Assembly: GCA_040754335.1 (NCBI GenBank)
Contig: JBFMCV010000003.1
Location: 47,356 to 111,355, forward strand
Reading direction: 5' to 3'
Origin: Thermodesulfobacteriota bacterium
GTDB taxonomy: Bacteria; Desulfobacterota_D; UBA1144; Nemesobacterales; UBA2774
DNA: 64,000 nucleotides
The notes beneath the pieces are model-generated. The model was not told the origin of the DNA, did not search any database, and saw only the letters and a list, made by a program, of their open reading frames with translations. Position 1 is the stretch's first letter. Every line of letters starts with the position of its first letter. Shown piece after piece: positions 239-30,919 of the stretch. Position numbers and translations under genes: made by a program.

Positions 239-295
239 ACAAGGTTTTCCTTATGGCATTTATTTTTCGGACGCGAGATCTCTTACATTACAGGC

Positions 296-9498: not shown

Positions 9499-11067
9499 CT
9501 AACTACCGGAGCCTTTCAGAACCACAGGAATGGTCTTCAGTATTATCTTCACATCGAGCCATATATTCCAGTTCTCGATATAGTACAGGTCAAGCTCCAT
9601 ATTACGATCGAAAGAAGGGTCGCTCCTCGCCTCCACCGCCCATAGACTCGTAATACCCGGCTTCACATCCAGCCTGCGGTAATCCTCGAGCTCGTACAAC
9701 TCGAAATCGTCCAAGGGGTGCGGTCTGGGGCCGACAAGACTCATATCTCCTTTCAAGAGGTTGAAAACCTGAGGCAGCTCATCGATACTGTATTTCCTTA
9801 AAAACCGGCCTACCCTCGTTATACGCGGGTCGTCCTTTATCTTGAAGAAAGGCCCGCTGCGTTCATTCAGCTCCCTGAGCTTGCCTTTAAGCTCGTCAGC
9901 ATTCGTCAGCATCGTGCGAAACTTCAGGCAGTCAAAGAATTTCCCTTTCTTGCCTACACGTCTGGAGCGGTATATGACAGGGCCGTCCGGGGAATCGAGC
10001 TTTATTGCAATAGCAGCCACCGTCAGTATCGGGAATGCAATGAGGAGCATCGCAATCCCGAATACGATATCTATTGTCCTTTTGATGAAGAGGCCGAGCT
10101 CCGGTATTGGCTTTCTGTAAACCTCCACCACAGGCAGATCGCCCAGGAATCCGAGTGAGAGAGGACGGTTCTGAGGAACGATCCCGTCCAGGAGATCGGG
10201 GATAACCTTTACGTCTGCTCTATAGTTGAGCGCCTCCGCTGTAACCTGCTTGACCAGCTCCCTCTCCGAAGGAATTGTGACTATCACCTCGTCTATAAAC
10301 TCACTCTGGAGAATCCGAGGGAGGTCCCCCGTCCTCCCCAGTACCCCTTTACCCTTTTTATAGTCGTCCACGAAACCGTTAACCTGGAAACCCCAGAGAT
10401 AATTGTCTTCCAGGGTCCGAGCGAGCTTCCGGCCCACCCTCCCGGCGCCGACGATGAGGACCCTCCTGAGCCCGTTTCCCTGCTTTATACGCTTTTCAAT
10501 GACTTTGTATTTCGTATACCTCCATCCTGCAACTGCGATTATGTTGAGACCCCAGCTCGATAACACAACAAAGCGGGATATCTGCTGCTTCGACAAATAC
10601 ATAACCACCATGATCATTAACGTCGCTATCGATACACCCTTAAAAACCAAGATCGCTTCGTCGAGCCATGTCCTCCCTAAACGAGTATGATAAAGCTCGT
10701 AGTTTTTAAAGAGGAGGACTATAAGCGCAATGTACAGAACTAGGAATCCCGTGTAATGGGGGAAATATTTATAACCGGTTATCGAAGTCAAGCCTCCTTT
10801 CAGGAGTCCCATGTCGTACAGTTCCGAGCCAAAACGTATGGTAAAAACGAGCGACGTGCTAATCAATATGCAAATTACATCGATGAAGAGACAGGCGGTC
10901 TCAGCCCACCTCCACTTTTCCTCAGCAGGACCGTAAAAGACCAACTTCGAATATTGCTCATTCGCTTTCAAGTTCAGCAAATTCATGATGCACCATGGGA
11001 CCGTTTCGACGTCCGGCATAACCGTCCACAATGAACTGCCGGAATGGAGAACAGAACGCGTGAACAC
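9499..11067 (-). CDS. Exopolysaccharide polyprenyl glycosylphosphotransferase (WbaP/EpsB-like priming sugar transferase)
   Basis: C-terminal Bac_transf domain (VGPRPHPLDDFELYE...KPGITSLWAVEARSD...). N-terminal TM helices plus a CoA-binding-like middle region. Confidence 0.8.
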   Translation of the reverse strand: MFTRSVLHSGSSLWTVMPDVETVPWCIMNLLNLKANEQYSKLVFYGPAEEKWRWAETACLFIDVICILISTSLVFTIRFGSELYDMGLLKGGLTSITGYKYFPHYTGFLVLYIALIVLLFKNYELYHTRLGRTWLDEAILVFKGVSIATLMIMVVMYLSKQQISRFVVLSSWGLNIIAVAGWRYTKYKVIEKRIKQGNGLRRVLIVGAGRVGRKLARTLEDNYLWGFQVNGFVDDYKKGKGVLGRTGDLPRILQSEFIDEVIVTIPSERELVKQVTAEALNYRADVKVIPDLLDGIVPQNRPLSLGFLGDLPVVEVYRKPIPELGLFIKRTIDIVFGIAMLLIAFPILTVAAIAIKLDSPDGPVIYRSRRVGKKGKFFDCLKFRTMLTNADELKGKLRELNERSGPFFKIKDDPRITRVGRFLRKYSIDELPQVFNLLKGDMSLVGPRPHPLDDFELYELEDYRRLDVKPGITSLWAVEARSDPSFDRNMELDLYYIENWNIWLDVKIILKTIPVVLKGSGS

Positions 11068-13578: not shown

Positions 13579-14586
13579 CTAATTTCTCGGAGGGTTATAT
13601 CCCACGCCCCCGAGTCCCCATATATTGAACTGAAGACCGTAAAAGAATTTCTTTATCCCGCTCGCCCCTACAATGACTGCGTCTTTTTCGTTAAGAAGCG
13701 GGTCCTCCGCTCCACCCTCGTGAATGCTGTTTAAATCGACTTCCACGATCTCTTTTCGACCGCTATCCGTATGATGAATCAGCTTAATGTCGCTCTTGTC
13801 GGCATAGCTTGCAACTCCGCCTGCCATAACGATCGCTTCGCTAAGCGTTGTTTTTCCCTGATTGATAGGGTACGCTCCGGGTTTCGTCACAGCGCCCTCC
13901 ACAAAGACATTAGCCGCTTCGGGAACATAAACTAAATCACCGGGCTGGATATCGAGATCCATGTCGGCCCCGTTTCCCGACACCACTTTGTCGAGGTCCA
14001 CGAGATAAGAGCTCTTCCCGCCGTTATTATCCGCTCTCGTTACGAGAACAGTCGTACCTGCCTTATCGCTCAATCCCTCAGCCGACGCAAGTACGTCCAA
14101 GAGACTCTGCTTACCTAACAACTCGTAATTTCCTGGCTTGTTTACATAACCCATGACAGCCACAACCTTACTCTTGTGCTCCTTCACGAACACGCTGACA
14201 TGAGGATTGTCGATGTAGTCACCCGACCTCAAAAGGTTCTCGATCTTTACCTCTGCATCCCTCGCTGTGAGTCCGTCGACGTTGACGTTATTGAGAAGAG
14301 GGACCGTTATATCACCCCTCGAGCTCACCCGCACGGTGGTAGTCAGCTCCTTTGACTCGAACACATTGATCTCGAGTAGGTCCGCAGGACCGATAAGATA
14401 GTCGTCCGGTGACGTCGCTGCGGCAGGAAGCCCCTTGGATAGAAGCTTTGAGTTTACGTTTCCGATTTCTTCAGGAGGTCCTGCTTCTTCTTCGGATATA
14501 CTCGTGCTTCTGACGCTGCTCCCGCCCCCGCAACCTGCAGCAAAACTCGTGAGAAGAAATAAAATAAAGAGATATCTTTTAACCAT
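13579..14586 (-). CDS. wza: Polysaccharide export outer-membrane lipoprotein (Wza-like, Poly_export + SLBB)
   Basis: Lipoprotein signal (LLTSFAAGC). Poly_export motif (YLIGPADLLEINVF...GDITVPLL..V.V.GLT), followed by SLBB-like repeats. Confidence 0.75.
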   Translation of the reverse strand: MVKRYLFILFLLTSFAAGCGGGSSVRSTSISEEEAGPPEEIGNVNSKLLSKGLPAAATSPDDYLIGPADLLEINVFESKELTTTVRVSSRGDITVPLLNNVNVDGLTARDAEVKIENLLRSGDYIDNPHVSVFVKEHKSKVVAVMGYVNKPGNYELLGKQSLLDVLASAEGLSDKAGTTVLVTRADNNGGKSSYLVDLDKVVSGNGADMDLDIQPGDLVYVPEAANVFVEGAVTKPGAYPINQGKTTLSEAIVMAGGVASYADKSDIKLIHHTDSGRKEIVEVDLNSIHEGGAEDPLLNEKDAVIVGASGIKKFFYGLQFNIWGLGGVGYNPPRN

Positions 14587-14759
14587 GTTACCCTCCCCAT
14601 GGGCACGAAAGAACGATAATTCACCTTGGGATTAACTGCTTTTACGGCTGTCCGGAACGCGCGAACACGGGATTTGACACAGCTTCGCCACCTGACTCAC
14701 ATCCCTAAACTCACTACGCCGTTATCCGGGAACCGGTTTATTACAAAGCCGGCAAACAA

Positions 14760-15350
14760 TCAAACTAATTCAATATCAGCCGTGTTTATATCAACAGCCA
14801 CGGACCGCTTAATGATATCGATCGAAATAACGAGTCTTTTGTTCCCTTTCCCGGAAAGTACCTTTCCCGTAATTCCCGCGAGCGGGCCGTTTATGACTCT
14901 TACTTCTTTCCCCTCCTCAAAATACGGGTACGGATCGCTCTCCATTTTCGCTTCCAAGAATTTTCTGACAGAATCTATCTGATCATTCGGGACAGGCTGG
15001 AGCCTGCCGTTTGCGCTCAGTATTCTGACCACCCCTCGAGTGTTCAGAACTTGAAAAATCGCGAGTGAATCAAGCGGGTGGATTCGCACAAAAAGGTAGC
15101 CGGGGAAAAGCGGGAGCTGAATCCGTTTCTTCCTGTCTATCCACTGACTGACGACATCCCTCAGAGGGAGAAAAGTCTCGATCCCCCTTTTCTCAATAGA
15201 GCGGTTGACCGCCTTTTCATGCCTGACGTTGGTGTAAACCGCATACCATTCTTTGTGCTCATTGTGCGCGCCGATGTCGAAGTTACCGGACGAGAGGGTT
15301 CTCTCCTTGTGCACAGATTGCGTGATGTCAGTTTCGACGATTTTATTCAT
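14760..15350 (-). CDS. NusG-family transcription antiterminator paralog (RfaH/UpxY-like)
   Basis: NGN domain (WYAVYTNVRHEK...GIETFLPL) and a KOW-like C-terminus. The ATG overlaps the stop of the upstream receiver gene by 8 nt. Sits immediately upstream of the EPS operon. Confidence 0.65.
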   Translation of the reverse strand: MNKIVETDITQSVHKERTLSSGNFDIGAHNEHKEWYAVYTNVRHEKAVNRSIEKRGIETFLPLRDVVSQWIDRKKRIQLPLFPGYLFVRIHPLDSLAIFQVLNTRGVVRILSANGRLQPVPNDQIDSVRKFLEAKMESDPYPYFEEGKEVRVINGPLAGITGKVLSGKGNKRLVISIDIIKRSVAVDINTADIELV

Positions 15351-15774
15351 AATATTTCCGTCCCGATGCCGGTCTCAGAGCCCCAGGCGGGCCCTCTTGC
15401 GCCGATGAACCATGCTTCTTTGCCAGCCTGTTTATAATTCTTGCAACCTCATCGAATTCCGTGGATTTATCCAGGAAATAATCCGCTCCCTCATCTAAAC
15501 ATTTTTTTCTATACTGAGGGTATGGAAAGTTCGTGAGCATTATTATTTTCTGATCGGAACGACTATTCTTAAACTTTTTAAGAAGTTGTATTCCATTCCA
15601 CTCATCCATGCGTATGTCGAGTATTATGACGTTCGGTTTGAGGTTATTGTTTGCCAGAATCGCGCTTCGTCCGTCTTCAGCCTGCTCCACGATATCCACT
15701 CCGTCAATCGAATCAAGTAAACTTACCAACCTGTCACGCACAATCTTGGAATCATCCACTACTAAAACCTTCAT
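15343..15774 (-). CDS. Single-domain response regulator (CheY-like receiver)
   Basis: MKVLVVDDS...ILDIRMDEWNG...MLT receiver motifs. Confidence 0.75.
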   Translation of the reverse strand: MKVLVVDDSKIVRDRLVSLLDSIDGVDIVEQAEDGRSAILANNNLKPNVIILDIRMDEWNGIQLLKKFKNSRSDQKIIMLTNFPYPQYRKKCLDEGADYFLDKSTEFDEVARIINRLAKKHGSSAQEGPPGALRPASGRKYYE

Positions 15775-16050
15775 GATATTGTTATCCGAACAGTTTTGTA
15801 CTGAGCATAACGTATAGGCGTTAAATTAGAAATCAGGAAACTTCCCTAATTTATATAGGACTCTGGATAATAGTTTTGTAGGGATTTTCCTACAATTGCA
15901 TCAAGCAGAAAGACTGCAAAGGTTGAGCAGAGGAATTCTGCTAATTGATCATTTACTCTGACAAGAAGCGTATTAATTGAATTACATGCCGCAAATGTTT
16001 CAGAATGTCGGAGTAAATGCCGGAAGGTTACATTGCAAAATACGCCTGAG

Positions 16051-16680
16051 CTAAACGAGGGCGTGCCTGATGGAATAATTTATGAGCTCGGCGTTCGTTT
16101 TCATGTTCATTTTCTGTAGTATGCGCGTGCGGTATGTGCTCACAGTCTTTTCGCTTAAAAATAGCTCATTCGATATCTCTTTTATCGTCTTACCCATCGC
16201 AATCATGCACAACACCTGGAACTCGCGGTTCGAGAGGGCCTCATCTGGCGTCGAAGAGGAATTATCATCCAAATCTTGAGCCAACTTTTCAGCGAGAGAC
16301 GGACTCACGTACTTGCCCCCGGCGACAACCTTCCTCACAGCTCTCACGAGCTCTTCGGGGGCGCTGTCTTTGGTCATATAACCTGCAGCACCGGCTTTAA
16401 GAACTCTTACGGCATACAAGCTTTCCGGGTAAATGCTTATTATAAGCACGTTCATTCCGGCATGTTCCCTCTTTAACTGCTCCAGAAGATCGAGCCCGTT
16501 CCTATCGGGAAGCGATATATCGAGCAGTATCACATCAAACTTCGTATTGCGGATTAACTCCAGGGCCTCTCTCGCTGTTCTCGCTTCGTCATAAACAGAG
16601 ATATCGGATTCGTTCTCAAGAATAAATTTCAGCCCCATCCTTACTACAGGGTGGTCATCAGCAATAAGCACCTTAATCAT
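16051..16680 (-). CDS. NarL/FixJ-family response regulator (receiver + LuxR HTH)
   Basis: IADDHPVVR...LLDISLPDRNG receiver, plus a LuxR-type HTH (LSNREFQVL...KTVSTYRTRILQKM). Confidence 0.85.
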   Translation of the reverse strand: MIKVLIADDHPVVRMGLKFILENESDISVYDEARTAREALELIRNTKFDVILLDISLPDRNGLDLLEQLKREHAGMNVLIISIYPESLYAVRVLKAGAAGYMTKDSAPEELVRAVRKVVAGGKYVSPSLAEKLAQDLDDNSSSTPDEALSNREFQVLCMIAMGKTIKEISNELFLSEKTVSTYRTRILQKMNMKTNAELINYSIRHALV

Positions 16681-17482
16681 TCGTTTTCCTCCTACTCGGA
16701 ATGAAGATTGACACCTTGGTCCCCTTCCCGCTCTTGCCTACTATATCTACGTCTCCTCCGAATAAAAGAGCCCTTTCCCTGATACCTAGAAGTCCCAAGG
16801 ACTGGGGAGCGGAAATATCCACCGTTGAAATACCCTTTCCGTTATCTATGACTTCAAGCTTGTACTTGTTACGGTATTGTTTTAACTTAACCTTGACCGT
16901 CGTCGCCCCAGAATGTCGCGCTACATTCGTCAGAGTTTCCTGAAAAATCCGGAATACGGCGGTAGCGTACTCCCTTTCGAGCTCCATGCATTCAAGCTCG
17001 GAGACGAAAATACACTTAATTCCCGTCAGCTTCTCGAAGTCCTGCGCCTGCCATTCGATGGCTCCGATTGTCCCGAGGTCATCGAGTATGCCGGGCCTCA
17101 GCTCCATCGCAATCCTGCGGACCGATTGAATGTTCGAGTCTATAAGCGCTGACATTTTCCTGATTATTTCGTTCAGCGGCTCCGTCAGGGTCTTGTCAAA
17201 TTTCTCATCGAGCCGAGCTTTCAACAAACCCAGGTCTATTTTAAGCGCCGTTAGCGACTGGCCGAGCTCATCATGAACCTCACGCGATATTTTTGTCCTC
17301 TCTTCTTCGCGTACGGACTCAAGGTGCTTAGTCAGAGCACGTAGCTGTTTATAAGAATTTTTGAGCTCTCTTTCTTTGAACCTTCTCTTGGTGATCTCTT
17401 TTCTCAGAGTTTCGTTAGTCTCTTCGAGCTCCGCATTCCTATTATCGACATGCGTGTCAGACTTTGAATTTATCCCTTTCAC
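16673..17482 (-). CDS. Cytoplasmic sensor histidine kinase (HisKA_3 + HATPase_c, NarX/DegS-like), no TM segment
   Basis: N-terminal coiled coil. H-box REVHDELGQSLTALK. C-terminal ATPase motifs (NVARHS..., DNGKGI, GLLGIRERA). Overlaps the RR gene start by 8 nt. Confidence 0.8.
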   Translation of the reverse strand: MKGINSKSDTHVDNRNAELEETNETLRKEITKRRFKERELKNSYKQLRALTKHLESVREEERTKISREVHDELGQSLTALKIDLGLLKARLDEKFDKTLTEPLNEIIRKMSALIDSNIQSVRRIAMELRPGILDDLGTIGAIEWQAQDFEKLTGIKCIFVSELECMELEREYATAVFRIFQETLTNVARHSGATTVKVKLKQYRNKYKLEVIDNGKGISTVDISAPQSLGLLGIRERALLFGGDVDIVGKSGKGTKVSIFIPSRRKTND

Positions 17483-17959
17483 CTTGCGGACTCCGCACTT
17501 CTATCGGATGGTATCCAATACCGTTCGTTTATTTAGACATATAAATATCCGTGCCACCCTGCAATAATCTCGGATATATATATCTAGAAGTTCTGCGGGT
17601 TAACAATCCCTGGCATCGTTCCGCATGTTTCCACATCTCGAAGTGTGGAAAACGAGATTTCAATCCAGGATCCATTTAGTAAAGCGACGGGAGCAAATAT
17701 CGAGTCTTCTTTCTCCGAAACATTCATTCTTGTAAGCCTAACTTATAAAAAATCACAATCAAGCAAAATTTAAATGAAGGTATAGAAGGTATGAACAATC
17801 TTTGCAGTTCATAGCCCTAGGTAAAATTCATGGCAGTGATTCCGGTATGATACGATTGAAATTACCGATCAAAAACTAATTAATTAGAACAGCCATGTCG
17901 TAAAAACAGGGACACCAAGAATGTGAAATACAACTCACTGTTGTTGGAAGATAATGAGG

Positions 17960-18326: not shown

Positions 18327-19076
18327 TCAAATATCAATTTCCATCAAATCTTCAGCTAGAATAACATCCACATCCACATACTTCCTGACCTGGCTGATAA
18401 TATCTATTTCATCACAATCGGAATAAAGGTGTGTCAGAATAATTTTTTTGGCGCCTGAAGCTCTTCCTATCTTTCCGACTTCAGTAGGGGTAAGATGGGC
18501 ATGAAATTTAAGTTCGTCCGGAAAAGAACATTCGATAACTAACAAATCCGCTTCCCTAGCGAGCTCAATTAATTTTTCTGTATATCCAGTATCCCCGGAA
18601 TATACTAATGATTTCCCATTGGACTCTATTCTGTACGCAATGCTGTTCTCGGTATGAAATGTATCGCTCGCTACAAGAACAAAATCTTCGAGCGTTACCG
18701 GTTCCTCATTTATTTCTTTTACGGTTAGCAAGTCCGGAGCAATCCAGTCGTGGTAAGCTGACTTTAGAGATGTGTATAAATCAATGAAACCTCTTGGGCC
18801 CCATATTTCAAGTGGTTTTTCGCGGAATTTTTTTGGGTGAGGATATTTTGTAGCAAATAAAAATGGGATTAAATCCGCAGTATGATCGGGATGAAAGTGG
18901 GTTATGAATATATGGTCCACTTTCAGATAATCCACGCCGACCATGCCTAATTTCCATGTAGTGCCATTTCCGCAATCAAGTAAAACAGTTGATTTTGCAA
19001 GCTCCAGTGCGTAGCCTGATGAGCCTCTTCTAATGTTGGGGACACAAGTTCCGGAACCTAATATATGTAGTTTCAT
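18327..19076 (-). CDS. MBL-fold metallo-hydrolase (RNase Z/ElaC-like short form)
   Basis: HFHPDH metal-binding motif (HxHxDH) with a later D and H. The gene is conspicuously AT-rich compared with its neighbours. Confidence 0.6.
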   Translation of the reverse strand: MKLHILGSGTCVPNIRRGSSGYALELAKSTVLLDCGNGTTWKLGMVGVDYLKVDHIFITHFHPDHTADLIPFLFATKYPHPKKFREKPLEIWGPRGFIDLYTSLKSAYHDWIAPDLLTVKEINEEPVTLEDFVLVASDTFHTENSIAYRIESNGKSLVYSGDTGYTEKLIELAREADLLVIECSFPDELKFHAHLTPTEVGKIGRASGAKKIILTHLYSDCDEIDIISQVRKYVDVDVILAEDLMEIDI

Positions 19077-19674
19077 CTTACAAATTAAAGGGGTTATGAA
19101 CTAAATCCAGCTATCGGTATCTGAAGCTAAACACCGCCCAATCCTAGATTACTGCAATTTCTATACCTGTCTAAAAGTCGGGCCGAGGATAACATATATG
19201 AATAGAGTTCTATATCAAGGGCATTAGTCTCCAAGACAGCCTCTTTGCAATTAACCTTTGATAAGCCGACAATTACATGCTTCATAAGTATCTACAGATA
19301 CATCATATTAATCACTACTCCGTCCATGCATATTAAATATCCATACTCTCTACAATGCCATTCATACAGAAGAAATCACATATATAATAATTCTCTGGCT
19401 ATTATAATTAACAGAAATCGTTAAGCATAAATATTAAGCAATGCTGCTTAGTTCATGTGCATTTCCCGCTACGCATTATTTAGAAAAATCATTATCATCA
19501 GACGTGTATTTGACAAGAATCTGTGTCTATGCCTTACAGACTGAATAATTATTCAATCTTAGCAGACACTAAGCGAAATTTCGTAATATTGCTTGTCACT
19601 CCTTAAAAGATTACATCTCTAATCCTTTTCAGTGGCATTCATCTTGCCACGATATTTTATAGAAAGGGGGATGT

Positions 19675-21564
19675 ATGCCGACAGAACATACGGCGCAAAG
19701 AAAAAGCGCCGAGGATTGTCAACGAGTTAAATCTCCGATACAGGCATATCTAGAGCGGCTTCACGCAAAGTGCTCAAAGCTGCAAGATGGACAGATCGCT
19801 ACCTATATCCCCGAGCTATCCAAGGCGGACCCGAACTGGTTCGGCATCTGCATTGCAACCACAGACGGTCGGGTCTATGAAGTCGGCGATACGCGTCAGC
19901 CATTTACGATACAGTCGATCTCCAAACCGTTCGTATACGGCATAGCTCTTGAGGACAGAGGCATCAATACGGTGCTCGGAAAGATAGGTGTTGAGCCTAC
20001 AGGCGACGCTTTTAACTCGATCAGCCTGGCTCCCGAATCCGGCTGTCCGTTCAACCCTATGATCAATGCCGGCGCAATCGCCGCGACATCCCTTGTGGTT
20101 GGCGATTCCAGCGATGACAAGATGCAGCGCATTTTGAGAGTTTTCTCGACCTACGCTGGACGCGAGCTTTCCATTGATACAACTGTCTACAAATCGGAAA
20201 AAGAGACGGGCCATCGCAATCGAGCGATTGGTCATATGCTGCGCAACTTTAATATACTGAACGAGGATCCCGATATAGCCCTCGACCTCTACTTTCAGCA
20301 GTGCTCAATTTCAGTCGATGCTCGGGATCTTAGCCTTATGGCGGCCACTCTGGCGAACGGCGGGGTTAATCCGCTGACGAAGGATCGAGCAATAAGTGAT
20401 GAGTTCCTCGAAAACCTTATGACCATCATGACAACTTGCGGAATGTACGACTACGCCGGCGAGTGGATGTATTGGATCGGCATACCCGCCAAGAGCGGTG
20501 TCGCAGGGGGAATTATGGCGGTTATGCCAGGTCAGGCCGGGATCGGAGTATTTTCGCCGCCTCTAGATGCACGGGGGAATAGTGTCCGCGGGATCGAGGT
20601 TTGCAAGAACCTTTCGAGGGATTTTAACCTCCACTGCCTTCGCGTTCCGCGCTCCTCACGATCTGCCATCCGGGCTCAGTACGATATCTCCAAGATTAGA
20701 TCCAAACGGCTCCGCGGTGAGCGTGATTCGGAGATTCTCGATAAATCGGGCACCCGGGCAAAAGTTTATGAGCTGCAGGGGGACCTTGTTTTTTCGACCG
20801 TCGAAGTAACTGTCCGCAGGATTGTCGATGCAAGCGATACCCTGGATATCGCCGTCATCGATTTCAAGCGAGTCACAAATATAGAGGACTCGTCCGCCCA
20901 GATACTGCTCGAATTAATCAGGACTTTGGGAGTTAACGGAAAATTCCTTTTATTAGCGAGCTTACAGCAGAGACACTCGAAGTTCATAAGATTCCTGCAA
21001 GAACAGCTTACGAACGACGATCAAGAGAGAACCTGGCTACGCATATTTCCCGATATGGATATCGCAATAGAATGGTGCGAAAACCGTTTGATTGCAGGTC
21101 AACGCCTCGATGACGGCTCTCATGAGGTGAAGCTGGCGGAGCATGACCTCTGCCGCGGACTTACGACGGAAGCCGTAGCGTTCTTGGAAACTATACTTAA
21201 GAGAAGGCGTTATGAACCCGGAGAGCTCATAGTTCGAAAGGACGATCCGGCTGATGAAATCTACTTGCTCATGAGCGGTGAAGTGAGCGTCAGGATCGAC
21301 CTTCCCAACGGCCAAATCAAACGGCTTTCGACCCTTTCTCCCGGTATGGCGTTCGGCGAAATTGCCGTCATAAACCGCTCCGTGCGATCAGCAGACGTCC
21401 ACGCTGATAAACACGTAGAGTGCTATCTACTGTCAACGGCCGCATTCGAGGAGCTTGGCGAGACAAATCCCATGATCAAAATGACGCTTCTCCAAAATCT
21501 GTTACGCAATTTCTCTCGGATGCTTACTATGGTTGAGCGGGAAGTCACTACGCTCGCTTGGTGA
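19675..21564 (+). CDS. glsA: Glutaminase A fused to STAS and cyclic-nucleotide-binding (CAP-family) domains
   Basis: Glutaminase motifs (KPFVYGIALE, NPMINAGAI, SGVAGGI). STAS-like region (YELQGDLVFSTVE...). C-terminal cNMP domain with FGEIAV...RSADV (the PBC RSA motif). RBS AAAGGGGG upstream. Confidence 0.75.
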   Translation: MPTEHTAQRKSAEDCQRVKSPIQAYLERLHAKCSKLQDGQIATYIPELSKADPNWFGICIATTDGRVYEVGDTRQPFTIQSISKPFVYGIALEDRGINTVLGKIGVEPTGDAFNSISLAPESGCPFNPMINAGAIAATSLVVGDSSDDKMQRILRVFSTYAGRELSIDTTVYKSEKETGHRNRAIGHMLRNFNILNEDPDIALDLYFQQCSISVDARDLSLMAATLANGGVNPLTKDRAISDEFLENLMTIMTTCGMYDYAGEWMYWIGIPAKSGVAGGIMAVMPGQAGIGVFSPPLDARGNSVRGIEVCKNLSRDFNLHCLRVPRSSRSAIRAQYDISKIRSKRLRGERDSEILDKSGTRAKVYELQGDLVFSTVEVTVRRIVDASDTLDIAVIDFKRVTNIEDSSAQILLELIRTLGVNGKFLLLASLQQRHSKFIRFLQEQLTNDDQERTWLRIFPDMDIAIEWCENRLIAGQRLDDGSHEVKLAEHDLCRGLTTEAVAFLETILKRRRYEPGELIVRKDDPADEIYLLMSGEVSVRIDLPNGQIKRLSTLSPGMAFGEIAVINRSVRSADVHADKHVECYLLSTAAFEELGETNPMIKMTLLQNLLRNFSRMLTMVEREVTTLAW

Positions 21565-21645
21565 GTCACGAGTTTGTACCAGAACAATCATTAGGTTTTA
21601 TCCGTACAGGTCAGTCGCGGTAAAAATAAGAGAGAGGGGTGGAGA

Positions 21646-24600
21646 ATGAAGAGTAGGCGTTCCCATATCCTGTGTTTTGTTATGGGTACAAGTTTTTTGT
21701 ACGCATATTTGTATTCCCATGCCACTTTCGCGGAAACATGTGAAAAACCGGTTGCAAAAGTGGTCTCAGTTCAAGGAACCGTAGAGGCACAAAGGGCGGG
21801 CGAAACGCAGTGGCAAGAAGTAAAATTAAACGACACATACTGCCCGGGAGACAAGATCCGGGTGCAGGAGAAAAGCCGTGCCGACGTAACGCTCCTCGAG
21901 AAGTCGGTAATCCGTCTAAATCAAAATACCACGATAACGCTCGAAAATGTGAAGGAAGAACGGACGAGTGTTATAGACATGATCAAGGGAGCCGCTCATT
22001 TCTTCAGCAGTGGTCCAGACAGCCTTGAGGTACATACACCGTATACGACTGCAGGTGTCAGGGGAACGGAATTTCTCGTAAGCATTGAAGACGATAAGAC
22101 CTTGTTGTCGACATTCGAAGGTACAGTCGTGGCATCGAACGATGCCGGCAGCCTGACGCTTACCGGCGGCCAGTCAGCAATTGCCGAGGCGGGGAAGCCC
22201 CCGGTGCTCAGTATCGTGGCGCGTCCTCGAGATGCCGTACAATGGACACTCTACTATCCGCCCGTCCTTTATCTCAGTCCCGATGAATTTCAATCCGGGC
22301 CGGGCTGGGAAGGCATGGTTCGTAAATCCATCGAGCTTTACATAAGCGGGGATATTCAGGGAGCCTTCGACAGTATTAAGGATGTGCCTGAGGATGTCCG
22401 CGATCCGCGTTTTTTTACCTATCGGGCCTCACTGCTCTTGGCGGTGGGCCAGGTTAATGAAGCAGATGCCGATATCGAGCGCGCGCTGAGGCTCGACCCC
22501 AAATATAGCGACGCCTTCGCGCTTGAAACAATTATCTATATTGTAGAGAACGAAAAAGACAAAGCCCTTGATGCCGCAGAAAAAGCCGTGGAAACGAATC
22601 CCGACTCCGCCACGGCAGAGATCGCCCTTTCTTATGCACAGCAGGCAATGTTTGACCTGAAAGGCGCTCGAACAAGCCTTGAAAAGGCGGTGCAGCTTGA
22701 TCCTCAAAACGCGCTTGCGTGGGCACGGTTAGCAGAGATCTGGGCGTCATTCGGCGATCTAGGCAAAGCGCTCAATGCGGCACAGGAGGCCGTAGTCCTT
22801 GAGCCGAATCTCTCGAGGACGCAGACAGTTCTCGGCTTCGCATATCTGACCCAGGTCGATACAAAACAGGCAAAGGATGCATTTGAAAAAGCGATCGCCC
22901 TTGACCAGGCCGATTATCTCCCGAGGTTGGGCCTTGGTCTGGCGAAGATCCGGGATGGCGATCTGCACGGCGGCGGGAGGGAGATTGAGATTGCAGCAAG
23001 CCTGGATCCAAACAACTCAATTGTCCGCAGCTATCTGGGCAAGACCTACTTTGAAGAGAAACGCACCAAGCTGGATGTGCGCGAGTACGAAACCGCTAAA
23101 CAACTGGACCCCCTGGACCCGACACCATGGTTCTATGACGCGATAGCGAAACAAACGACGAATAGGCCGGTTGAGGCTCTCCAAAACATGCAAAAATCCA
23201 TTGAGTTAAACAACAACAGAGCTGTTTACAGATCGCGTCTGCTGCTCGACTCGGACCTGGCCGCACGCAGTGCCGGCCTGGCACGTATCTATACAGATCT
23301 CAGCTTCCAGCAGCTTGCCCTCGTTGAGGGATGGAAATCCGTTAACATTGACCCCTCGAGCTTTTCCGCACACCGGTTCCTGGCTGACTCATATGCTGTT
23401 TTACCCCGACACGAAATCGCCAGGGTGAGCGAGCTGCTGCAGTCACAGCTGCTTCAGCCCATCAACATCACGCCGATTCAGCCCCGGCTCGCGGAGAGTA
23501 ATCTATTTCTGATCTCCTCCCAAGGACCAGGCTCTGTCTCCTTCGATGAGTTCAACCCGCTTTTCAACCGCAACCAGGTAACCCTTCTGACGAGCGGCCT
23601 GGTTGCCGAAAATGAGACATGGGCCGGAGAAGGCGTTGTCTCGGCCATATATAATAAGGCCAGCTTCAGCGGGGGTTACTCATACTTCGGCACGGACGGG
23701 TTTAGAGAAAACGACGATCAGAAGGATCAGATCGCAACCGCCTATCTCCAATTGGAGCTCACTTACAAAACAAGCATTCAGGCTGAGTACCGCTATAGAA
23801 ACACAGAACTGGGAGACCTGGCACTCAGATTCTTTCCGGATGACTTCCTCCCAGGCTTGAGAAACAAGCAGGAAAGAAACTACTTCAGGGTCGGTGGACG
23901 GCACGCATTTTCCCCGGGTTCGGTCCTCATCGGCAACTTTACATATCAAAATGCAGATTTTAATTTGACGGACAAGCTTAGTTCCTTTGACGCGAAAAGA
24001 CCGGAAGACGCCTATAGCGCCGAGGCCCAACACCTGTTCCGTTCTCAATACATAAATCTCGTTAGCGGCGCGGGCTACTTCGATGTAAACGGAAGGATCG
24101 ATACGACTATAACGATTGATATTCCCCCGCCCGACGGGCCAATAATTGCTCAATCCACAACAAGTACGGACCTCCAGCACCTTAATATGTACATATACTC
24201 ATACTTGAACCCCATGAACAATGTGACGTTCACCCTTGGGGCAAGTGCCGACTTCCTGAGCGGCGACAGTCCCGATGTCGGGGATAAAGACAAGTTCAAT
24301 CCGAAATTCGGTATAACCTGGAATCCGATCCCGTCTACGACTTTACGCGCTGCGGCGTTCAGGGTGTTAAAGAGAACGCTGATTACGGACCAGACCCTGG
24401 AGCCGACCCAGGTCGCCGGCTTCAACCAATTTTTCGATGACGTCAACGGAACTGAATCATGGGTATTCGGCGGGGCTATCGATCAGAAATTCCCGAAGGA
24501 TTTCTTCGGTGGCGTACAATTTACAAAGAGGGATCTGGAAGTTCCGTTCCTGGATTTTACAGCCGATCCAGAAAATCCTCCGGTCCGGAATGAGGACGTC

Positions 24601-25035
24601 GACGAATATCTGGGTCTAGCCTACCTCTTCTGGGCTCCGCATCCATGGCTCGCGTTAAGAGCACAGTATTTATTCGAACGATTTGAGACTCAGGGTTTGA
24701 CCGACCAGCCGAAAGAGCTGACTACAAATCGTGTCCCCCTCGGGGTCAACTTCTTCCACCCTTCCGGATTGGGCTCTAATGTGACAGTGACTTACCTTAA
24801 TCAGGACGGGGATTTTCTGTCGCCGGACGGTGACGGATTTGTGTCAGGCGAAGATAACTTCTGGATCGTCGATGCAGCGGTCTATTACCGTCTGCCGAAA
24901 CGGTACGGTTTCATCACGGTAGGAGCGACGAATCTCTTTGACCAAGAGTTCAATTATTTTGAGGTAGACGTCGATAATCCGCGCATACAGCCTGGAAGGG
25001 TGTTCTATGCACGGGTTACACTGGCGCTTCCATAA
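21646..25035 (+). CDS. Large secreted protein with N-terminal FecR domain, TPR repeats and a C-terminal region resembling an outer-membrane beta-barrel
   Basis: Signal peptide. FecR-like segment (TVEAQRAGETQWQEV...AGVRGTEFLV). At least 6 TPR-like repeats (AFALETIIY..., ALSYAQQAM..., AWARLAEIW...). The C-terminal ~600 aa has alternating hydrophobic/polar beta-strand character with aromatic-rich ends. Confidence 0.55.
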   Translation: MKSRRSHILCFVMGTSFLYAYLYSHATFAETCEKPVAKVVSVQGTVEAQRAGETQWQEVKLNDTYCPGDKIRVQEKSRADVTLLEKSVIRLNQNTTITLENVKEERTSVIDMIKGAAHFFSSGPDSLEVHTPYTTAGVRGTEFLVSIEDDKTLLSTFEGTVVASNDAGSLTLTGGQSAIAEAGKPPVLSIVARPRDAVQWTLYYPPVLYLSPDEFQSGPGWEGMVRKSIELYISGDIQGAFDSIKDVPEDVRDPRFFTYRASLLLAVGQVNEADADIERALRLDPKYSDAFALETIIYIVENEKDKALDAAEKAVETNPDSATAEIALSYAQQAMFDLKGARTSLEKAVQLDPQNALAWARLAEIWASFGDLGKALNAAQEAVVLEPNLSRTQTVLGFAYLTQVDTKQAKDAFEKAIALDQADYLPRLGLGLAKIRDGDLHGGGREIEIAASLDPNNSIVRSYLGKTYFEEKRTKLDVREYETAKQLDPLDPTPWFYDAIAKQTTNRPVEALQNMQKSIELNNNRAVYRSRLLLDSDLAARSAGLARIYTDLSFQQLALVEGWKSVNIDPSSFSAHRFLADSYAVLPRHEIARVSELLQSQLLQPINITPIQPRLAESNLFLISSQGPGSVSFDEFNPLFNRNQVTLLTSGLVAENETWAGEGVVSAIYNKASFSGGYSYFGTDGFRENDDQKDQIATAYLQLELTYKTSIQAEYRYRNTELGDLALRFFPDDFLPGLRNKQERNYFRVGGRHAFSPGSVLIGNFTYQNADFNLTDKLSSFDAKRPEDAYSAEAQHLFRSQYINLVSGAGYFDVNGRIDTTITIDIPPPDGPIIAQSTTSTDLQHLNMYIYSYLNPMNNVTFTLGASADFLSGDSPDVGDKDKFNPKFGITWNPIPSTTLRAAAFRVLKRTLITDQTLEPTQVAGFNQFFDDVNGTESWVFGGAIDQKFPKDFFGGVQFTKRDLEVPFLDFTADPENPPVRNEDVDEYLGLAYLFWAPHPWLALRAQYLFERFETQGLTDQPKELTTNRVPLGVNFFHPSGLGSNVTVTYLNQDGDFLSPDGDGFVSGEDNFWIVDAAVYYRLPKRYGFITVGATNLFDQEFNYFEVDVDNPRIQPGRVFYARVTLALP

Positions 25036-25112
25036 TCGGAACAAATGAGCAAAGGCGGGGCGATTTTGTCAATGAGATGCAGAAAGGTAAAACACATAAG
25101 GAGGTTGTAATC

Positions 25113-25832
25113 ATGTTGGAGAGATTAACGCTGATTTGCCTGTTAGGTATGGTTCTCTTCCCGGTATTTGGGACTGTAGCCAGTGCGGCGACATGTCCTT
25201 CAGGTTATACGTATAAATGTCCGATCATTGGGGGGACAAAATGCTGCGCGTGCTGGAAGACGGGGAGCGAAATTTGTGACGCTGAAGTCACCGGATTGGG
25301 CAACATTAAAAACTGCGTCCCCGGTGTGAATTGCCCGGTCGTGACATGTTCTGTCTACGGTACAGTAGATTTAGGAGACGGATCGTGCGACCCCAATACA
25401 TTAGACCCTGACTGTGGCATCCAGGGCATCGCATATTGTGTAAACCCGGCAGGTAATTCTTCACAATCCCAGGGAAATCCATTTACTCTAGAGACGGTAC
25501 TTACTGGTGTAGCTGATATCGAGAAATGCGACAAGAATGGCAAATGTCAGAGGTCAGTCGAGGTCAATCCGGAGGATTGCCCGGACTGCTGCATAAATCC
25601 AAATTGGCAATTCAAAACTTTTACGGCCACACAATTCAACGGAGAGGTTTGCGTATGCCCCGGCGGGTACTCAACTGGAGGAGTTTGTTGCGCAGATATT
25701 GCACGACAACTTGACGGCAGTTGTGCGACAGCGGGCGATGAAGTCTGCCTCGCACAGCAATGTACTGCTGATTTGACAGGATACAAACCTGGGAGGAGCA
25801 TACCGTATAATTGCACCGACCTGCCGCAATAA
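25113..25832 (+). CDS. Secreted cysteine-rich protein (about 34 Cys in about 215 mature residues), hypothetical
   Basis: ATG at 25113 preceded by a perfect AAGGAGG. Signal peptide LICLLGMVLFPVFGTVASAA. Many CC, CxC and CxxC motifs. Confidence 0.6.
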   Translation: MLERLTLICLLGMVLFPVFGTVASAATCPSGYTYKCPIIGGTKCCACWKTGSEICDAEVTGLGNIKNCVPGVNCPVVTCSVYGTVDLGDGSCDPNTLDPDCGIQGIAYCVNPAGNSSQSQGNPFTLETVLTGVADIEKCDKNGKCQRSVEVNPEDCPDCCINPNWQFKTFTATQFNGEVCVCPGGYSTGGVCCADIARQLDGSCATAGDEVCLAQQCTADLTGYKPGRSIPYNCTDLPQ

Positions 25833-25948
25833 GTCGTGGCAGCGTGACACTGTGAGTCGATGCAGTTTGAGCATATACGGATTCCGTCGAGTATAGTCCG
25901 CGTAACAGATTCAGACCGCGGGTAACTTCTCTATCGACGGGTGTGCCT

Positions 25949-28219
25949 ATGAGATTATCTCTTAAACCCCTTTTCTCGATCAATCCTGTTTCTCTGACTC
26001 TAGGCACAATCCTGGTTGTTATAGTGCTCTTCCTGGCAAGAATAACGATCCTCGACCTTATCGAATTGAAAACTTACGACCTCCGATTTCTAACTCGCGG
26101 GCAGTTACCATCCTCCCCGGCGGTCGTTATAGCAGCCATAGACGAAAAAAGCCTAGATAGCGAAGGGCGCTGGCCCTGGCCCAGGTCCAAGATCGCCGCT
26201 CTCGTGGATATCCTTTCTCAAGACGGAGCCAAAGTGATCGGTTTTGACATCGGTTTCCTGGAGGCGGATGAGAACTCACAGCTTGCGTTGATCAATCAAT
26301 TTAGTCAGAAAGTAGATGCTCAATATGGTAAAAACTCACGGCTGGCCAGCTTCATACAAGAAAGCAAAAAGCGAGCCGACAACGACACGGCCCTGGCCGA
26401 AGCCATAAAAAAATCGTCCGCGGAAGTAGTTCTTGGATACTTCTTTCATATGAGTGAAGCCGACCTTGATTATAGTATCGAACAGAGCGAGATGGACAAA
26501 CAGCTTGAACGCATCAGTGATTCAAAATACCCTTTCGTACTTTACGAAGAACAGGGAACAGATTCCGTGCCCTTTATTAAAGCCTATGCGCCCGAGAGCA
26601 ATCTCGAAATTATCACCGAAGCGGCAGCCTCTTCGGGCTACTTCACCATGCGAAGTGATCAGGACGGTGTCCTCCGCTGGATGCCGCTCACTATACAGTA
26701 TGGCGAGGATTTGTTTCCTCCTCTGGCGGTCTTGTGTGCCTGGCAGTACCTGGGCAAACCTCAACTGATGGTTAAGGTCGGGCGATACGGAGTGGAAGAG
26801 ATACAGATGGGAGATCGTTTCATACCGACTGATGAAAGCGGTCAACTGCTCATTAATTACCTAGGCCCTCCAAAAACCTTTCCTCATCACTCTGCCAGCG
26901 ATATTCTGAGCGGCAAGTTCACTAAGGGAACTTTTAAAGATAAAATCGTGCTTGTTGGGGCCACAGCCACTGGCATCTATGATCTGAGGAACACACCCTT
27001 CAGCCCCTCATATCCCGGTGTGGAGGTTCATGCCAGTGTCATCGACAACATATTGACACAAAATTTCATCTCGAAGCCCAGATGGTCGAGGATTTACGAC
27101 CTGCTCGCCATAATTATTCTGGGAGTTCTCATCGGGATCGCCATACCGCGTATGAGTGCACTTAAAGGGTTTTTGTTTGTCGCCGGACTGATCATCTTAT
27201 ACATCTCCGTGGTACTGTGGCTCTTCGTCAGAGCCGGAGTGTGGCTCAATATCGTCTATCCCCTGCTGACGCTATCAATGAGTTATATGGTCCTTACCGT
27301 TTATTATTATGCTACGGAAGAGCGGGAACGTAAGAAAATAAAAAAGGCATTCACTCATTATGTAGCACCCGTGGTAATCGAAGCCATGCTGAAGGACCCG
27401 TCCCAGTTAAAACTGGGGGGAGATGAGAAGGTTCTGACAGTCTTGTTCAGCGACCTTCAGGGATTTACTTCCGCATCTGAGCGTTATGCCCCTCATGAGA
27501 TGATCGTGATTCTGAGCGAATACTATGCCCGGATGACAGAACAGGTATTCGCACATCAGGGGATGCTGAAAGAATACGTGGGTGACGAGATGATGGCTAT
27601 TTTTGGCGCCCCTATTGATCAGAACGACCATGCGGAAAGAGCGTGCGCCGCAGCCCTGGCCATGCGGGATAATCGAAATACGCTGAACGAAGAGTGGGCC
27701 GAGATTGGACGCCCGCCCCTGATCGCCAGGACAGGGATCAACTCGGGCCGCATGCTTGTAGGGAATCTGGGATCCAAATATCGTTTTGCTTACGGCGTTC
27801 TAGGGGACCATGTGAACCTGGGCTCCCGTCTTGAGGGTCTAAACAAGGGTTACGGTACTGAAATCCTCATCGGTGAGAACACAGCACAGCTTGTCGGCGA
27901 TAAGTTTCTCCTGCGGGAAGTCGACATGGTGCAGGTGGTCGGCAGGGTACAGCCCGTGCGTATATATGAGCTCCTGGCCGCACACGGCACGCCACTGCAT
28001 CATGAGCAGGAGAAAGCATTCGGTTTCTATGCTGCAGGGCTGGAAGCGTATCGAGAACGGCAATGGAACGAAGCTCTTGGTATATTCAACAAATGCCTGG
28101 GGCTATGTCCCGATGACGGTCCATCACGAACAATGGCGGAGCGTTGTCAAATCTACCGGAAGACACCGCCCCCTGAAGAGTGGGACGGTGTTTTTGAAGC
28201 GATCCACAAATTCAAGTGA
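25949..28219 (+). CDS. CHASE2-sensor class III adenylate/guanylate cyclase with C-terminal TPR-like region
   Basis: N-terminal TM helix, a periplasmic CHASE2-like domain (about 330 aa), 3 TM helices, then a CYCc domain (VLFSDLQGFTSASE...VGDEMMAIFGAP...GINSGRMLVGNLGS...YGVLGDHVNLGSRLE). Confidence 0.8.
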   Translation: MRLSLKPLFSINPVSLTLGTILVVIVLFLARITILDLIELKTYDLRFLTRGQLPSSPAVVIAAIDEKSLDSEGRWPWPRSKIAALVDILSQDGAKVIGFDIGFLEADENSQLALINQFSQKVDAQYGKNSRLASFIQESKKRADNDTALAEAIKKSSAEVVLGYFFHMSEADLDYSIEQSEMDKQLERISDSKYPFVLYEEQGTDSVPFIKAYAPESNLEIITEAAASSGYFTMRSDQDGVLRWMPLTIQYGEDLFPPLAVLCAWQYLGKPQLMVKVGRYGVEEIQMGDRFIPTDESGQLLINYLGPPKTFPHHSASDILSGKFTKGTFKDKIVLVGATATGIYDLRNTPFSPSYPGVEVHASVIDNILTQNFISKPRWSRIYDLLAIIILGVLIGIAIPRMSALKGFLFVAGLIILYISVVLWLFVRAGVWLNIVYPLLTLSMSYMVLTVYYYATEERERKKIKKAFTHYVAPVVIEAMLKDPSQLKLGGDEKVLTVLFSDLQGFTSASERYAPHEMIVILSEYYARMTEQVFAHQGMLKEYVGDEMMAIFGAPIDQNDHAERACAAALAMRDNRNTLNEEWAEIGRPPLIARTGINSGRMLVGNLGSKYRFAYGVLGDHVNLGSRLEGLNKGYGTEILIGENTAQLVGDKFLLREVDMVQVVGRVQPVRIYELLAAHGTPLHHEQEKAFGFYAAGLEAYRERQWNEALGIFNKCLGLCPDDGPSRTMAERCQIYRKTPPPEEWDGVFEAIHKFK

Positions 28220-28452: not shown

Positions 28453-28538
28453 TGGCGGAGGGCGAGGGATTCGAACCCCCAAGTCCTTGCGGACGCCGGT
28501 TTTCAAGACCGGTGCATTAGCCGTTCTGCCAGCCCTCC
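28453..28538 (-). tRNA. tRNA-Ser (anticodon UGA), type II with long variable arm, CCA encoded
   Basis: Reverse complement: GGAGGGCTGGCAGAACGGCTAATGCACCGGTCTTGAAAACCGGCGTCCGCAAGGACTTGGGGGTTCGAATCCCTCGCCCTCCGCCA. 7-bp acceptor stem, G73 discriminator, anticodon stem CCGGT/ACCGG with loop CTTGAAA, T-loop GGTTCGAATCC. Confidence 0.85.
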
Positions 28539-28646
28539 GGGGGAATGAACGCTACTGGATATTAATATATGGTCTGGACGCCAGAAATACTACCGCGACG
28601 AAGCCGCTCAGGCAAGGAATGCGGACCATAGCATGAGACAATCGCG

Positions 28647-29967: not shown

Positions 29968-30246
29968 TTAAAAGAGATCGAACTCGAACTCTATTAAATC
30001 ATCGTCGTAATCGTCATCATAGTAGTAGTATCTGACGTCATCGTCGGGATCGACATAATAGTAGTATTTGTCTTCATCATAATCGGCGCGATCAACAAAA
30101 TTAACGCTGGTATCCGGCTGCTCGTAAACATAACGGTGCTCCACTACGCGTCCGGACTGTATAATATAATAATCGTCAGCAAAACTATTAACAGCGGCGC
30201 CAAAAATTAACGAACCCAATAATGTCAATGTCACAATGAGTTTTTT
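29968..30246 (-). CDS. Small secreted Tyr/Asp-rich protein (paralog 1)
   Basis: Start at MKKLIV with AGGAGGTG upstream, then a signal peptide. C-terminal DKYYYYVDPDDDVRYYYYDDDYDDD. Confidence 0.6.
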   Translation of the reverse strand, partial: KKLIVTLTLLGSLIFGAAVNSFADDYYIIQSGRVVEHRYVYEQPDTSVNFVDRADYDEDKYYYYVDPDDDVRYYYYDDDYDDDLIEFEFDLF

Positions 30247-30320
30247 CATTTCATTCACCTCCTGGTAAAAATCGACAACAGCCTCATTCATTCGAGTTCA
30301 ATCAAACGGGCGTCGCCGGT

Positions 30321-30611
30321 TTAATCGTCATAATAGTAAAAGTATCTGACATCGCCATCAGGCTCGACGATGTAGCGGTATTCGATGTCGTCGTCAGGGG
30401 CAACGTAACGGTAGTATTTGACCTCATAATCATCGGGATCTATATAATAAACGTTCCGCTCCCGTTCTATATATACGGGCGGGTCATTTACGTAACGATG
30501 CTGCACGTATCCCGGCGGCACGATGTAATAATAGTCGTCGGCCAAGCTAATGGACGCAGCGCCTATAATAAAAACGCTTAACATCATTAAAGTTACTATG
30601 AATTTTCTCAT
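30321..30611 (-). CDS. Small secreted Tyr/Asp-rich protein (paralog 2)
   Basis: Start at MRKFIV with the identical upstream context GGAGGTGAATGAAATGA. Signal peptide; DDYYYIVPPGY...RYFYYYDD. Confidence 0.6.
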   Translation of the reverse strand: MRKFIVTLMMLSVFIIGAASISLADDYYYIVPPGYVQHRYVNDPPVYIERERNVYYIDPDDYEVKYYRYVAPDDDIEYRYIVEPDGDVRYFYYYDD

Positions 30612-30919
30612 TTCATTCACCTCCTGTGAAAATTCAACGATTTAATGTCAAACAACACATATAGGGGGGCAAAGACCATGCCATGCAGCTAAAAATATTC
30701 ACAATATGCAGTGATTCCGGGGAATTTGTAATCCTATCGGCTTTACATCAGGATTACGAATGCAGGTTCATTGTCCGATCTCATACACAATTTATTGTAG
30801 GCGAAGGTACTGAATGATTTATTTATTTCTCCAACAAAGAGATGAGAAAATTTGCCATTTCCCATCCGCCTTACACCCTATAATGGAAGGCGTAATAATC
30901 CTCACGAGACCGAAGCGCA

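Follow-up and report, generated by a model that had tools for sequence, protein, structure and literature searches.

A glutaminase fused to STAS and cyclic-nucleotide-binding domains as the predicted output of a conserved cyclic-nucleotide signaling cassette

A gene in a Thermodesulfobacteriota genome encodes a glutaminase fused to a STAS domain and a cyclic-nucleotide-binding (CNB) domain, and we consider it moderately likely that the STAS–CNB part of this protein is an allosteric sensor of a cyclic nucleoside monophosphate (cNMP) for the glutaminase, with the gene serving as the output of a self-contained signaling cassette. The gene lies in a 64,000-nucleotide stretch of contig JBFMCV010000003.1 (assembly GCA_040754335.1, positions 47,356–111,355 of the forward strand), here called the window, and window coordinates are counted from its first letter. 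Judged from comparative sequence evidence, a second messenger would probably switch glutamine breakdown directly in this system. Part of the picture is already known: the sequence family and its architecture are present in databases, and every domain and neighboring gene belongs to a known family. New here are the interpretation that a conserved, probably cyclic GMP (cGMP)-specific cassette has the fusion as its effector, and the cyclase linkage across phyla. Within the open-access literature that we covered, no publication characterizing a CNB-fused glutaminase was found.

The fusion gene is a single unbroken open reading frame (ORF; 19675..21564, plus strand) that starts with ATG and has a GGGGGA ribosome-binding site 5–10 nt upstream. 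A Pfam architecture search recovered the order that a sequence-only reading of this DNA had proposed—a glutaminase core, then STAS, then a cNMP-binding domain—and the domain matches are statistically strong and not chance resemblances. The catalytic domain scores 398.9 bits against PF04960 (Glutaminase; cut-off 27, E=1.4e-119) and 359.3 bits against the NCBIfam model TIGR03814 (“glutaminase A”; cut-off 255.4), and among solved structures it is closest to M. luteus Mglu (E=1.5e-85), with mammalian GLS, including human GLS, at ~1e-74. Its active site is complete (S81-x-x-K84, N131, E175, N182, Y206, Y258, S274), and the S81–K84 motif aligns with QSCVK of mouse GAC (5w2j). In an alignment of 86 proteins, made up of the window protein and 85 fusion proteins from related loci, these eight residues are each conserved in 85–86 members. 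From this profile match and the intact residues, the fusion is predicted to be a catalytically competent glutaminase A.

The two C-terminal domains differ in the strength of their matches. PF00027 (cNMP_binding) matches residues 510–597 with 69.2 bits (cut-off 27.5, E=2.9e-19), and the AlphaFold2 (AF2) model shows a beta-barrel here, followed by a helix at residues 599–628. The match of PF01740 (STAS) to residues 361–433 is marginal yet above threshold (23.9 bits against a cut-off of 22.6, E=3.7e-5); relatives score better, and the model corroborates a STAS domain with alternating beta and alpha elements across residues 332–476. As a whole the AF2 model, built with 54 homologues, has a pLDDT of 85 and a pTM of 0.80 and is composed of a glutaminase core, a STAS-like unit and a CNB barrel; its pLDDT is low in the gating loop (residues 109–128). 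A DNA-binding domain is absent from the fusion protein.

The phosphate-binding cassette (PBC) of the CNB domain reads FGEIAVINRSVRSA, with F560-G561-E562 and R571-S572-A573 at the canonical spacing G-E-x8-R-[ST]-A. It aligns gap-free with functional PKG and PKA pockets, e.g., PfPKG CNB-A/B (RSA) and CNB-D (RTA), and the solved structures nearest to this CNB domain are those of PKG, then of PKA R subunits. The retention of an FGE...RSA cassette, as first read from the sequence, holds across the family: G561 is conserved in 85, E562 in 83, R571 in 77, S/T572 in 69 and A573 in 72 of the 86 fusion proteins, and G561, E562, R571 and A573 are invariant in a smaller alignment (A1). By these comparisons the pocket is canonical and conserved. 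The label “cAMP-binding (CAP-type)” that came with that reading is too specific, as the protein lacks a DNA-binding domain, its nearest CNB domains are those of PKG and PKA, and the presumably co-operonic cyclase carries Glu/Gly instead of Lys/Asp-Thr at its specificity positions.

The glutaminase–STAS–CNB architecture is widespread, occurring in many phyla including cultured genera, and databases label it only “glutaminase.” An NCBI record named “MAG: glutaminase A [Thermodesulfobacteriota bacterium]” (MAG, metagenome-assembled genome) is 100% identical to the fusion protein, and the best 120 protein clusters (58–93% identity) all contain PF04960 and PF00027, with or without PF01740. Scanning a single genome for each GTDB species, we recovered 80 fusion loci of near-full length, which fall in Verrucomicrobiota (Chthoniobacter flavus), Actinomycetota (Rhodococcus, Arthrobacter castelli, Frankia, Streptomyces durbertensis), Planctomycetota (Kuenenia MAGs), Chloroflexia, one cyanobacterium, Nitrospira, Acidobacteriota and several proteobacterial classes.

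The second line of evidence is the company that the fusion gene keeps (Table 1). The order metallo-beta-lactamase (MBL)-fold gene, fusion, FecR–TPR gene, gene for a small secreted protein, and CHASE2 cyclase gene is the same in three other genomes (loci L081, L082/L083, and L084), in which the fusion is 81–88% identical to the window protein and the genes outside the block are completely different. Because gene order is conserved while the outer flanks differ, the block behaves as a unit. No terminator-like sites were found in the gaps between the cassette genes, intrinsic terminators inside the cassette are not above chance, and we infer that the cassette genes form an operon.

Table 1. Positions in the window of the fusion gene, its domains and the associated cassette features
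Feature	Position	Strand	Basis
MBL-fold hydrolase, divergently encoded; candidate cNMP phosphodiesterase (eraser)	18327..19076	-	HxHxDH motif, YhfI match
Sigma54-type -24/-12 element TGGCAT-N5-TTGC, 28 nt before the fusion ATG	19633..19647	+	Conserved in four cassette loci
Glutaminase–STAS–CNB fusion, 629 aa; proposed reader and effector of the cassette	19675..21564	+	ORF and three Pfam domains
Catalytic glutaminase domain, residues 39-321	19789..20637	+	PF04960, E=1.4e-119
STAS domain, residues ~332-476, linking catalytic and sensor domains	20668..21102	+	PF01740, AF2 and Foldseek
CNB domain, residues ~487-629, with 30-residue C-terminal helix	21133..21561	+	PF00027 and AF2
PBC FGEIAVINRSVRSADV, residues 560-575	21352..21399	+	Ungapped alignment to PKG pockets
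Secreted FecR + TPR protein, 1129 aa, with large C-terminal region; candidate envelope co-sensor	21646..25035	+	FecR E=5e-18 and TPRs, signal-peptide-like N-terminus
Cys-rich secreted protein, 251 aa, 26 Cys	25077..25832	+	Position conserved in relatives
CHASE2 + class III nucleotidyl cyclase, 758 aa; predicted guanylate cyclase (writer)	25943..28219	+	CHASE2 E=3e-66, Guanylate_cyc E=1e-21

Beyond the close relatives, we took a census of neighbors in which all ORFs within 8 kb on either side of the fusion were clustered without prior assumptions across 83 loci. The class III cyclase was the top family (11 loci), and stand-alone CNB proteins of ~150 aa (8 loci), FecR–TPR proteins (6), and MBL proteins (5) were also recovered. 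In the 80 GTDB loci, with 1.16 Mb of flanking sequence, a cyclase is present in 11, and in 8 of these 11 it is immediately adjacent to the fusion (gap <350 bp), a degree of adjacency with a binomial P of ~1e-6 to 2e-4, conditional on a cyclase being present within 10 kb on either side. Two gammaproteobacterial MAGs (L040 and L045) pair the fusion with a FecR–TPR homologue (52 and 40% identity) and a CHASE2 cyclase of the Glu/Ser type, in another order and orientation. In a clade of ~60% identity, two of four long contigs have the fusion beside multi-domain cyclases, Metallophos phosphoesterases and stand-alone CNB genes. Direct allosteric control of glutamine hydrolysis by a cyclic nucleotide, as the sequence-only reading had proposed, gains from both the conserved pocket and this linkage to genes of cNMP synthesis and degradation; on such comparative evidence it stands as a prediction.

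In that clade, on L086 (3134..7807 and 221..979, both minus strand) and L087 (5680..6429 and 17516..17848, both plus strand) the fusion is flanked by ~1560-aa proteins with two Guanylate_cyc domains and AAA_16, and by Metallophos genes, whose products are members of the CpdA-type class III phosphodiesterase superfamily. The set of nucleotide-making and nucleotide-degrading genes in this clade differs from that of the window. Stand-alone CNB proteins of ~150–176 aa are encoded at L021 (12587..13048, minus strand) and seven other loci, and on L087 (7330..7860, minus strand).

These neighbors bear directly on an explanation in which the STAS–CNB part is not a cNMP sensor at all, having instead a structural or oligomerization role or binding another metabolite (cf. 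the CNB-like domain of NtcA, which responds to 2-oxoglutarate), and in which the cyclase linkage is incidental. Many CNB-like domains of the CRP/FNR family do bind other ligands, and several of our own data weigh against cNMP sensing in the same direction: no cyclase lies within 10 kb of the fusion at ~85% of its loci, R571 is substituted in 9 of the 86 fusion proteins, and in Mglu a STAS-like C-terminal domain occurs with no CNB. Because ~85% lack a nearby cyclase, most family members must answer to the cellular pool or to something else. The full PBC signature at canonical spacing nonetheless occurs in ~90% of members, and CNB-like domains that have diverged in ligand usually lose it; cyclase, stand-alone CNB and phosphodiesterase-like genes rank top as neighbors across phyla, with cyclase adjacency far beyond chance. 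We therefore rate the non-cNMP explanation as improbable, and continue with the STAS–CNB part as a cNMP sensor.

Which nucleotide would be sensed is suggested by the cyclase of the cassette. This protein combines a CHASE2 domain, a transmembrane segment and a class III catalytic domain in which both metal Asp residues and the transition-state Asn and Arg are present, and the best solved matches of the catalytic domain are the Cya2-derived structures 6fht and 2w01 (E=2e-36). Its base-specifying pair is Glu/Gly: LKEYVGD and AYGVLGD of the window cyclase align with IDEFMGD and KYGVVGA of Cya2, and every close-relative cassette, like the window, encodes Glu at the Lys position. Lys/Thr is found at those two positions in the adenylate cyclases CyaB and CyaC and in the engineered Cya2 E488K. 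The guanylate cyclase Cya2, which is regulated through CHASE2 and has an E-G pair, becomes an adenylate cyclase upon the E488K substitution (PMC4215837, PMC5995499). Because the window cyclase has this Cya2-type Glu/Gly pair, cGMP is likelier than cAMP in this lineage, and we predict, with a confidence kept moderate by one missing Tyr, that the cyclase product is cGMP.

That missing Tyr is among several observations that count against cGMP and make up the case for cAMP. The Tyr of VNLTYR in Cya2 is reported to boost guanylate cyclase activity (PMC4215837), and the window cyclase, which reads VNLGSR, has Ser in its place; Cya2 itself binds ATP and GTP equally (PMC4215837). In other phyla, most of the linked cyclases carry Lys/Thr, i.e., are of the adenylate type: Lys/Thr or Lys/Ser in L058, L013, L059, and L027 and Lys at the first position in L006 and L041, the other pairs being Glu/Ser, Gln/Ala, Arg/Gly, and Gln/Thr. 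As the specificity pairs of the linked cyclases vary to this extent, the ligand probably differs between lineages. The pocket, for its part, does not reveal the ligand, because Ser572 is found in both cAMP and cGMP receptors; RSA is also the motif of the CRP-type cAMP pocket, and cAMP is far commoner than cGMP in bacteria. No pocket residue emerged that separates fusions linked to Glu-type cyclases from those linked to Lys-type cyclases, in a sample that was too small. On balance cAMP is a possible ligand in this lineage, at a modest level of belief. The full alternative, in which allosteric regulation is real, cAMP serves as the ligand, and the CHASE2 cyclase has adenylate or dual specificity, is unlikely: it is opposed by the Glu that the window and close-relative cassettes have at the very position where E488K creates an adenylate cyclase (PMC5995499), and by the fact that, among solved structures, PKG domains match the CNB domain best.

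The STAS domain invites a different mode of control, and the sequence-only reading had named partner switching as an addition or alternative to nucleotide binding. Here, phosphorylation or binding by an anti-sigma-type kinase (cf. SpoIIAA, RsbV) would control the enzyme or sequester a partner. A STAS domain is present, and D-S-S at residues 405–407 falls at the position of the SpoIIAA phospho-serine; this position, however, is variable among the 86 proteins, with S in 26, A in 25 and V in 17 at residue 406 and A in 61 and S in 14 at residue 407. Neither an HATPase anti-sigma kinase (RsbW/SpoIIAB-type) nor a PP2C phosphatase is encoded in the window neighborhood or at related loci, and the STAS domain groups with SulP-type STAS domains, which do not act as phospho-switches. 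With its key residue not conserved and its gene context missing, partner switching was rejected as very improbable.

The kinship with SulP proteins emerged from a search with residues 330–629 against 1.84 billion representative proteins, which gave 22,397 matches at E<=1e-3 and 227 at E<=1e-30. Full-length STAS–CNB matches fell into two classes, glutaminase fusions and proteins of 715–770 aa, and every scanned member of the latter class is a SulP transporter followed by STAS and then CNB. Because the homology with the SulP proteins runs end to end, STAS–CNB may be regarded as a transferable regulatory cassette for two kinds of output, and by analogy we infer that STAS couples the sensor to the output domain. 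An unusual chemoreceptor–transporter–CNB architecture also appeared in this search, with STAS–CNB at the C-terminus after MCP signaling and SulP domains (P0188, 1330 aa; P0196, 975 aa).

The gene that diverges from the fusion could supply the opposite activity to the cyclase. The 249-aa MBL protein contains HFHPDH (HxHxDH), its best PDB match is YhfI (6KNS, E=4e-22), and the position of its gene is kept in L081, L082, and L084. YhfI prefers cAMP and cGMP (PMC9117128), and Rv1339 and CpdA belong to the same group of atypical class II phosphodiesterases, members of which cleave cAMP and cGMP (PMC9117128, PMC9293780). The NCBIfam model NF041851 (“cyclic nucleotide-degrading phosphodiesterase”) aligns over residues 1–247 of the protein and 2–252 of its own 253 positions (E=1.7e-32); two points tell against the assignment, i.e., the score of 112.8 bits is below the model’s cut-off of 400, and RNase Z models match the protein as well, over half its length. 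We regard the MBL protein as a plausible candidate eraser.

A cyclase, a CNB-bearing effector and a candidate phosphodiesterase in one block also call to mind a Pycsar-like antiphage cassette, in which a cyclic nucleotide would be made upon infection and the glutaminase would act as an abortive-infection effector that depletes glutamine. PADLOC does return matches, to PycTIR for the CNB domain (E=1.8e-12) and to PycC for the cyclase (E=4.8e-19), and the MBL neighbor is weakly similar to the Apyc1 family; the matches, however, are at the level of domains only, and the MBL protein has no PADLOC match and is nearer YhfI than Apyc1. Whereas PycC is a soluble pyrimidine cyclase, the cyclase here is a membrane CHASE2 receptor nearest Cya2 and CyaB, with no PycC structure among its PDB matches, and the effector is an ordinary metabolic enzyme, widespread without a cyclase partner, and not a CNB–TM or CNB–TIR toxin. 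Both the FecR/TPR protein, as an envelope sensor, and the sigma54 promoter are in keeping with environmental sensing instead. The defense reading was rejected on the domain-level nature of its PADLOC matches, and we hold it to be extremely unlikely.

In the signaling cassette that we favor, the secreted FecR/TPR protein, possibly together with the Cys-rich protein, would sense an envelope or extracellular cue and relay it to the membrane cyclase, whose periplasmic CHASE2 domain would receive it. This enzyme would then make a nucleotide, presumably cGMP, that would bind the FGE...RSA pocket of the CNB domain. The resulting conformational change would pass via STAS to the catalytic domain and alter the hydrolysis of glutamine to glutamate and ammonium. 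The change may be an activation, by relief of auto-inhibition or a changed oligomeric state, a direction to which we lean slightly because of the analogy with the CNB-regulated enzymes Pat, PKA, and PKG, our one ground for it. The YhfI/Rv1339-type MBL phosphodiesterase would reset the signal, and transcription of the operon is apparently sigma54-dependent.

A broader claim, which we put forward tentatively, is that 18327..28219 forms a complete, portable bacterial cGMP pathway, that its glutaminase is the first cGMP-gated metabolic enzyme described in bacteria, and that STAS–CNB is a general plug-in regulator shared with SulP transporters. To our knowledge, few bacterial cGMP effectors are known, and the outputs of bacterial cNMP signaling are mostly transcription factors. 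If the proposed mechanism is right, an extracellular cue would be coupled to glutamine, glutamate and ammonium flux without any transcription factor, and a CNB-gated glutaminase would exemplify direct control of central nitrogen metabolism by a second messenger. The cassette, compact and with a sigma54-type promoter, would offer a defined test system made up of sensor, writer, eraser and effector, and the wide occurrence of the fusion (in cultured Rhodococcus, Arthrobacter, Frankia, Streptomyces and Chthoniobacter, and in Kuenenia MAGs) means that a result would generalize and that tractable organisms are at hand. The shared STAS–CNB module further predicts cNMP control for a class of SulP transporters.

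The remaining features of the cassette concern its expression, its small secreted protein and its surroundings. The promoter element, in the form TGGCAY-N5-TTGC, is conserved in the window, L081 (~10026..10040), L082, and L084 (alignment A2), and the sigma54 pattern has two matches in the window vs 0.09 expected. The ~600 bp between the two divergent genes (19077..19674) are AT-rich and have the element at their end; the GC content of bin 18001–20000 is 0.40 vs ~0.50–0.55 nearby. This suggests activator-dependent (sigma54) transcription of the fusion operon, which fits a nitrogen- or stress-linked role. No sigma54 activator (GAFTGA motif) was found in the window, and an Rfam scan of 18000–30000 at permissive E-values for a riboswitch (e.g., for glutamine) in the upstream region yielded just a tRNA. 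The second sigma54-like match (30669..30683, minus strand) is ~50 nt upstream of tandem paralogous ORFs (30321..30620 and 29968..30291, both minus strand) encoding proteins of 99 and 107 aa with signal-peptide-like N-termini and Tyr/Asp-rich, repetitive C-termini (YYY and DDD runs).

The Cys-rich protein has no match in Pfam, NCBIfam or PADLOC and is found only in the close-relative cassettes, where it is 57–81% identical at the same position in L081 (15529..16302), L082 (15386..16474), and L084; in L084 the gene is duplicated (15446..16165 and 16316..17080). A role in the periplasm, as a partner of the sensor or as its ligand, is possible. At the borders of the cassette, a tRNA-Ser(TGA) gene (28453..28538, minus strand) abuts the 3′ end of the cyclase gene, as it does in L082 (19009..19094, minus strand). 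There, a phage-integrase fragment (19115..19426, minus strand) follows the tRNA gene, which suggests an integration hotspot bordering the cassette. Upstream of the cassette in the window, genes for a HisKA_3 histidine kinase, a LuxR-type response regulator, a NusG-like protein and a Poly_export/SLBB protein (13579..17482, minus strand) suggest an adjacent exopolysaccharide locus.

Several elements of the cassette have counterparts in known systems, from which they depart in some respect. The BiofilmReg operon of Burkholderia likewise encodes a secreted FecR-domain protein beside a CHASE2 membrane receptor (PMC5192318), although there the receptor is a histidine kinase and its partner a LysM–FecR protein, whereas here they are a cyclase and a FecR–TPR protein with a large C-terminal region. 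With the atypical class II phosphodiesterases (YhfI, Rv1339, CpdA) the MBL protein shares its size (249 aa vs 250 aa for the 6KNS chain), HxHxDH and a full-length alignment to NF041851, and it differs from them in falling below the NCBIfam equivalog cut-off. The window cyclase has both its CHASE2–TM–class III architecture and its Glu/Gly pair in common with Synechocystis Cya2 (PDB 2W01); we know of no CNB–glutaminase effector described for Cya2.

The fusion protein itself shares parts with several known systems. The regulatory CNB domains of PKG and PKA have a PBC of the same length with the same G-E...R-[ST]-A residues, yet these proteins are eukaryotic kinase regulators and show no homology to the fusion outside the CNB domain. 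The cAMP-regulated mycobacterial acetyltransferase Pat (Rv0998/MSMEG_5458) is likewise a metabolic enzyme fused to a CNB domain, and its NCBIfam model NF058543 matches the CNB region of the fusion (E=3.8e-12). In Pat, however, the CNB domain is N-terminal, the catalytic domain is GNAT, STAS is lacking and the chemistry is different, with homology confined to the CNB domain. Auto-inhibition of Pat is relieved by cAMP, and Pat serves as our working model for the fusion. The salt-tolerant Mglu of M. luteus K-3 (PDB 3IF5, 3IH8, 3AGD) is aligned by Foldseek over 420–460 columns that take in both the catalytic domain and the STAS-like C-terminal domain. It is, by contrast, 456 aa long and ends after this second domain, without a CNB, its domain orientation is unlike that of the model (rmsd ~11.5 A), and the sequence similarity of its C-terminal domain to the fusion is insignificant. 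The uncharacterized STAS–CNB transporters of the SulP/SLC26 family (e.g., P0168, P0183, P0199) have a ~300-residue module that is homologous to that of the fusion end to end (33–36% identity, E ~1e-35 to 1e-43), and they differ in output—a membrane anion transporter, in some cases extended by an MCP domain, where the fusion has a soluble amidohydrolase.

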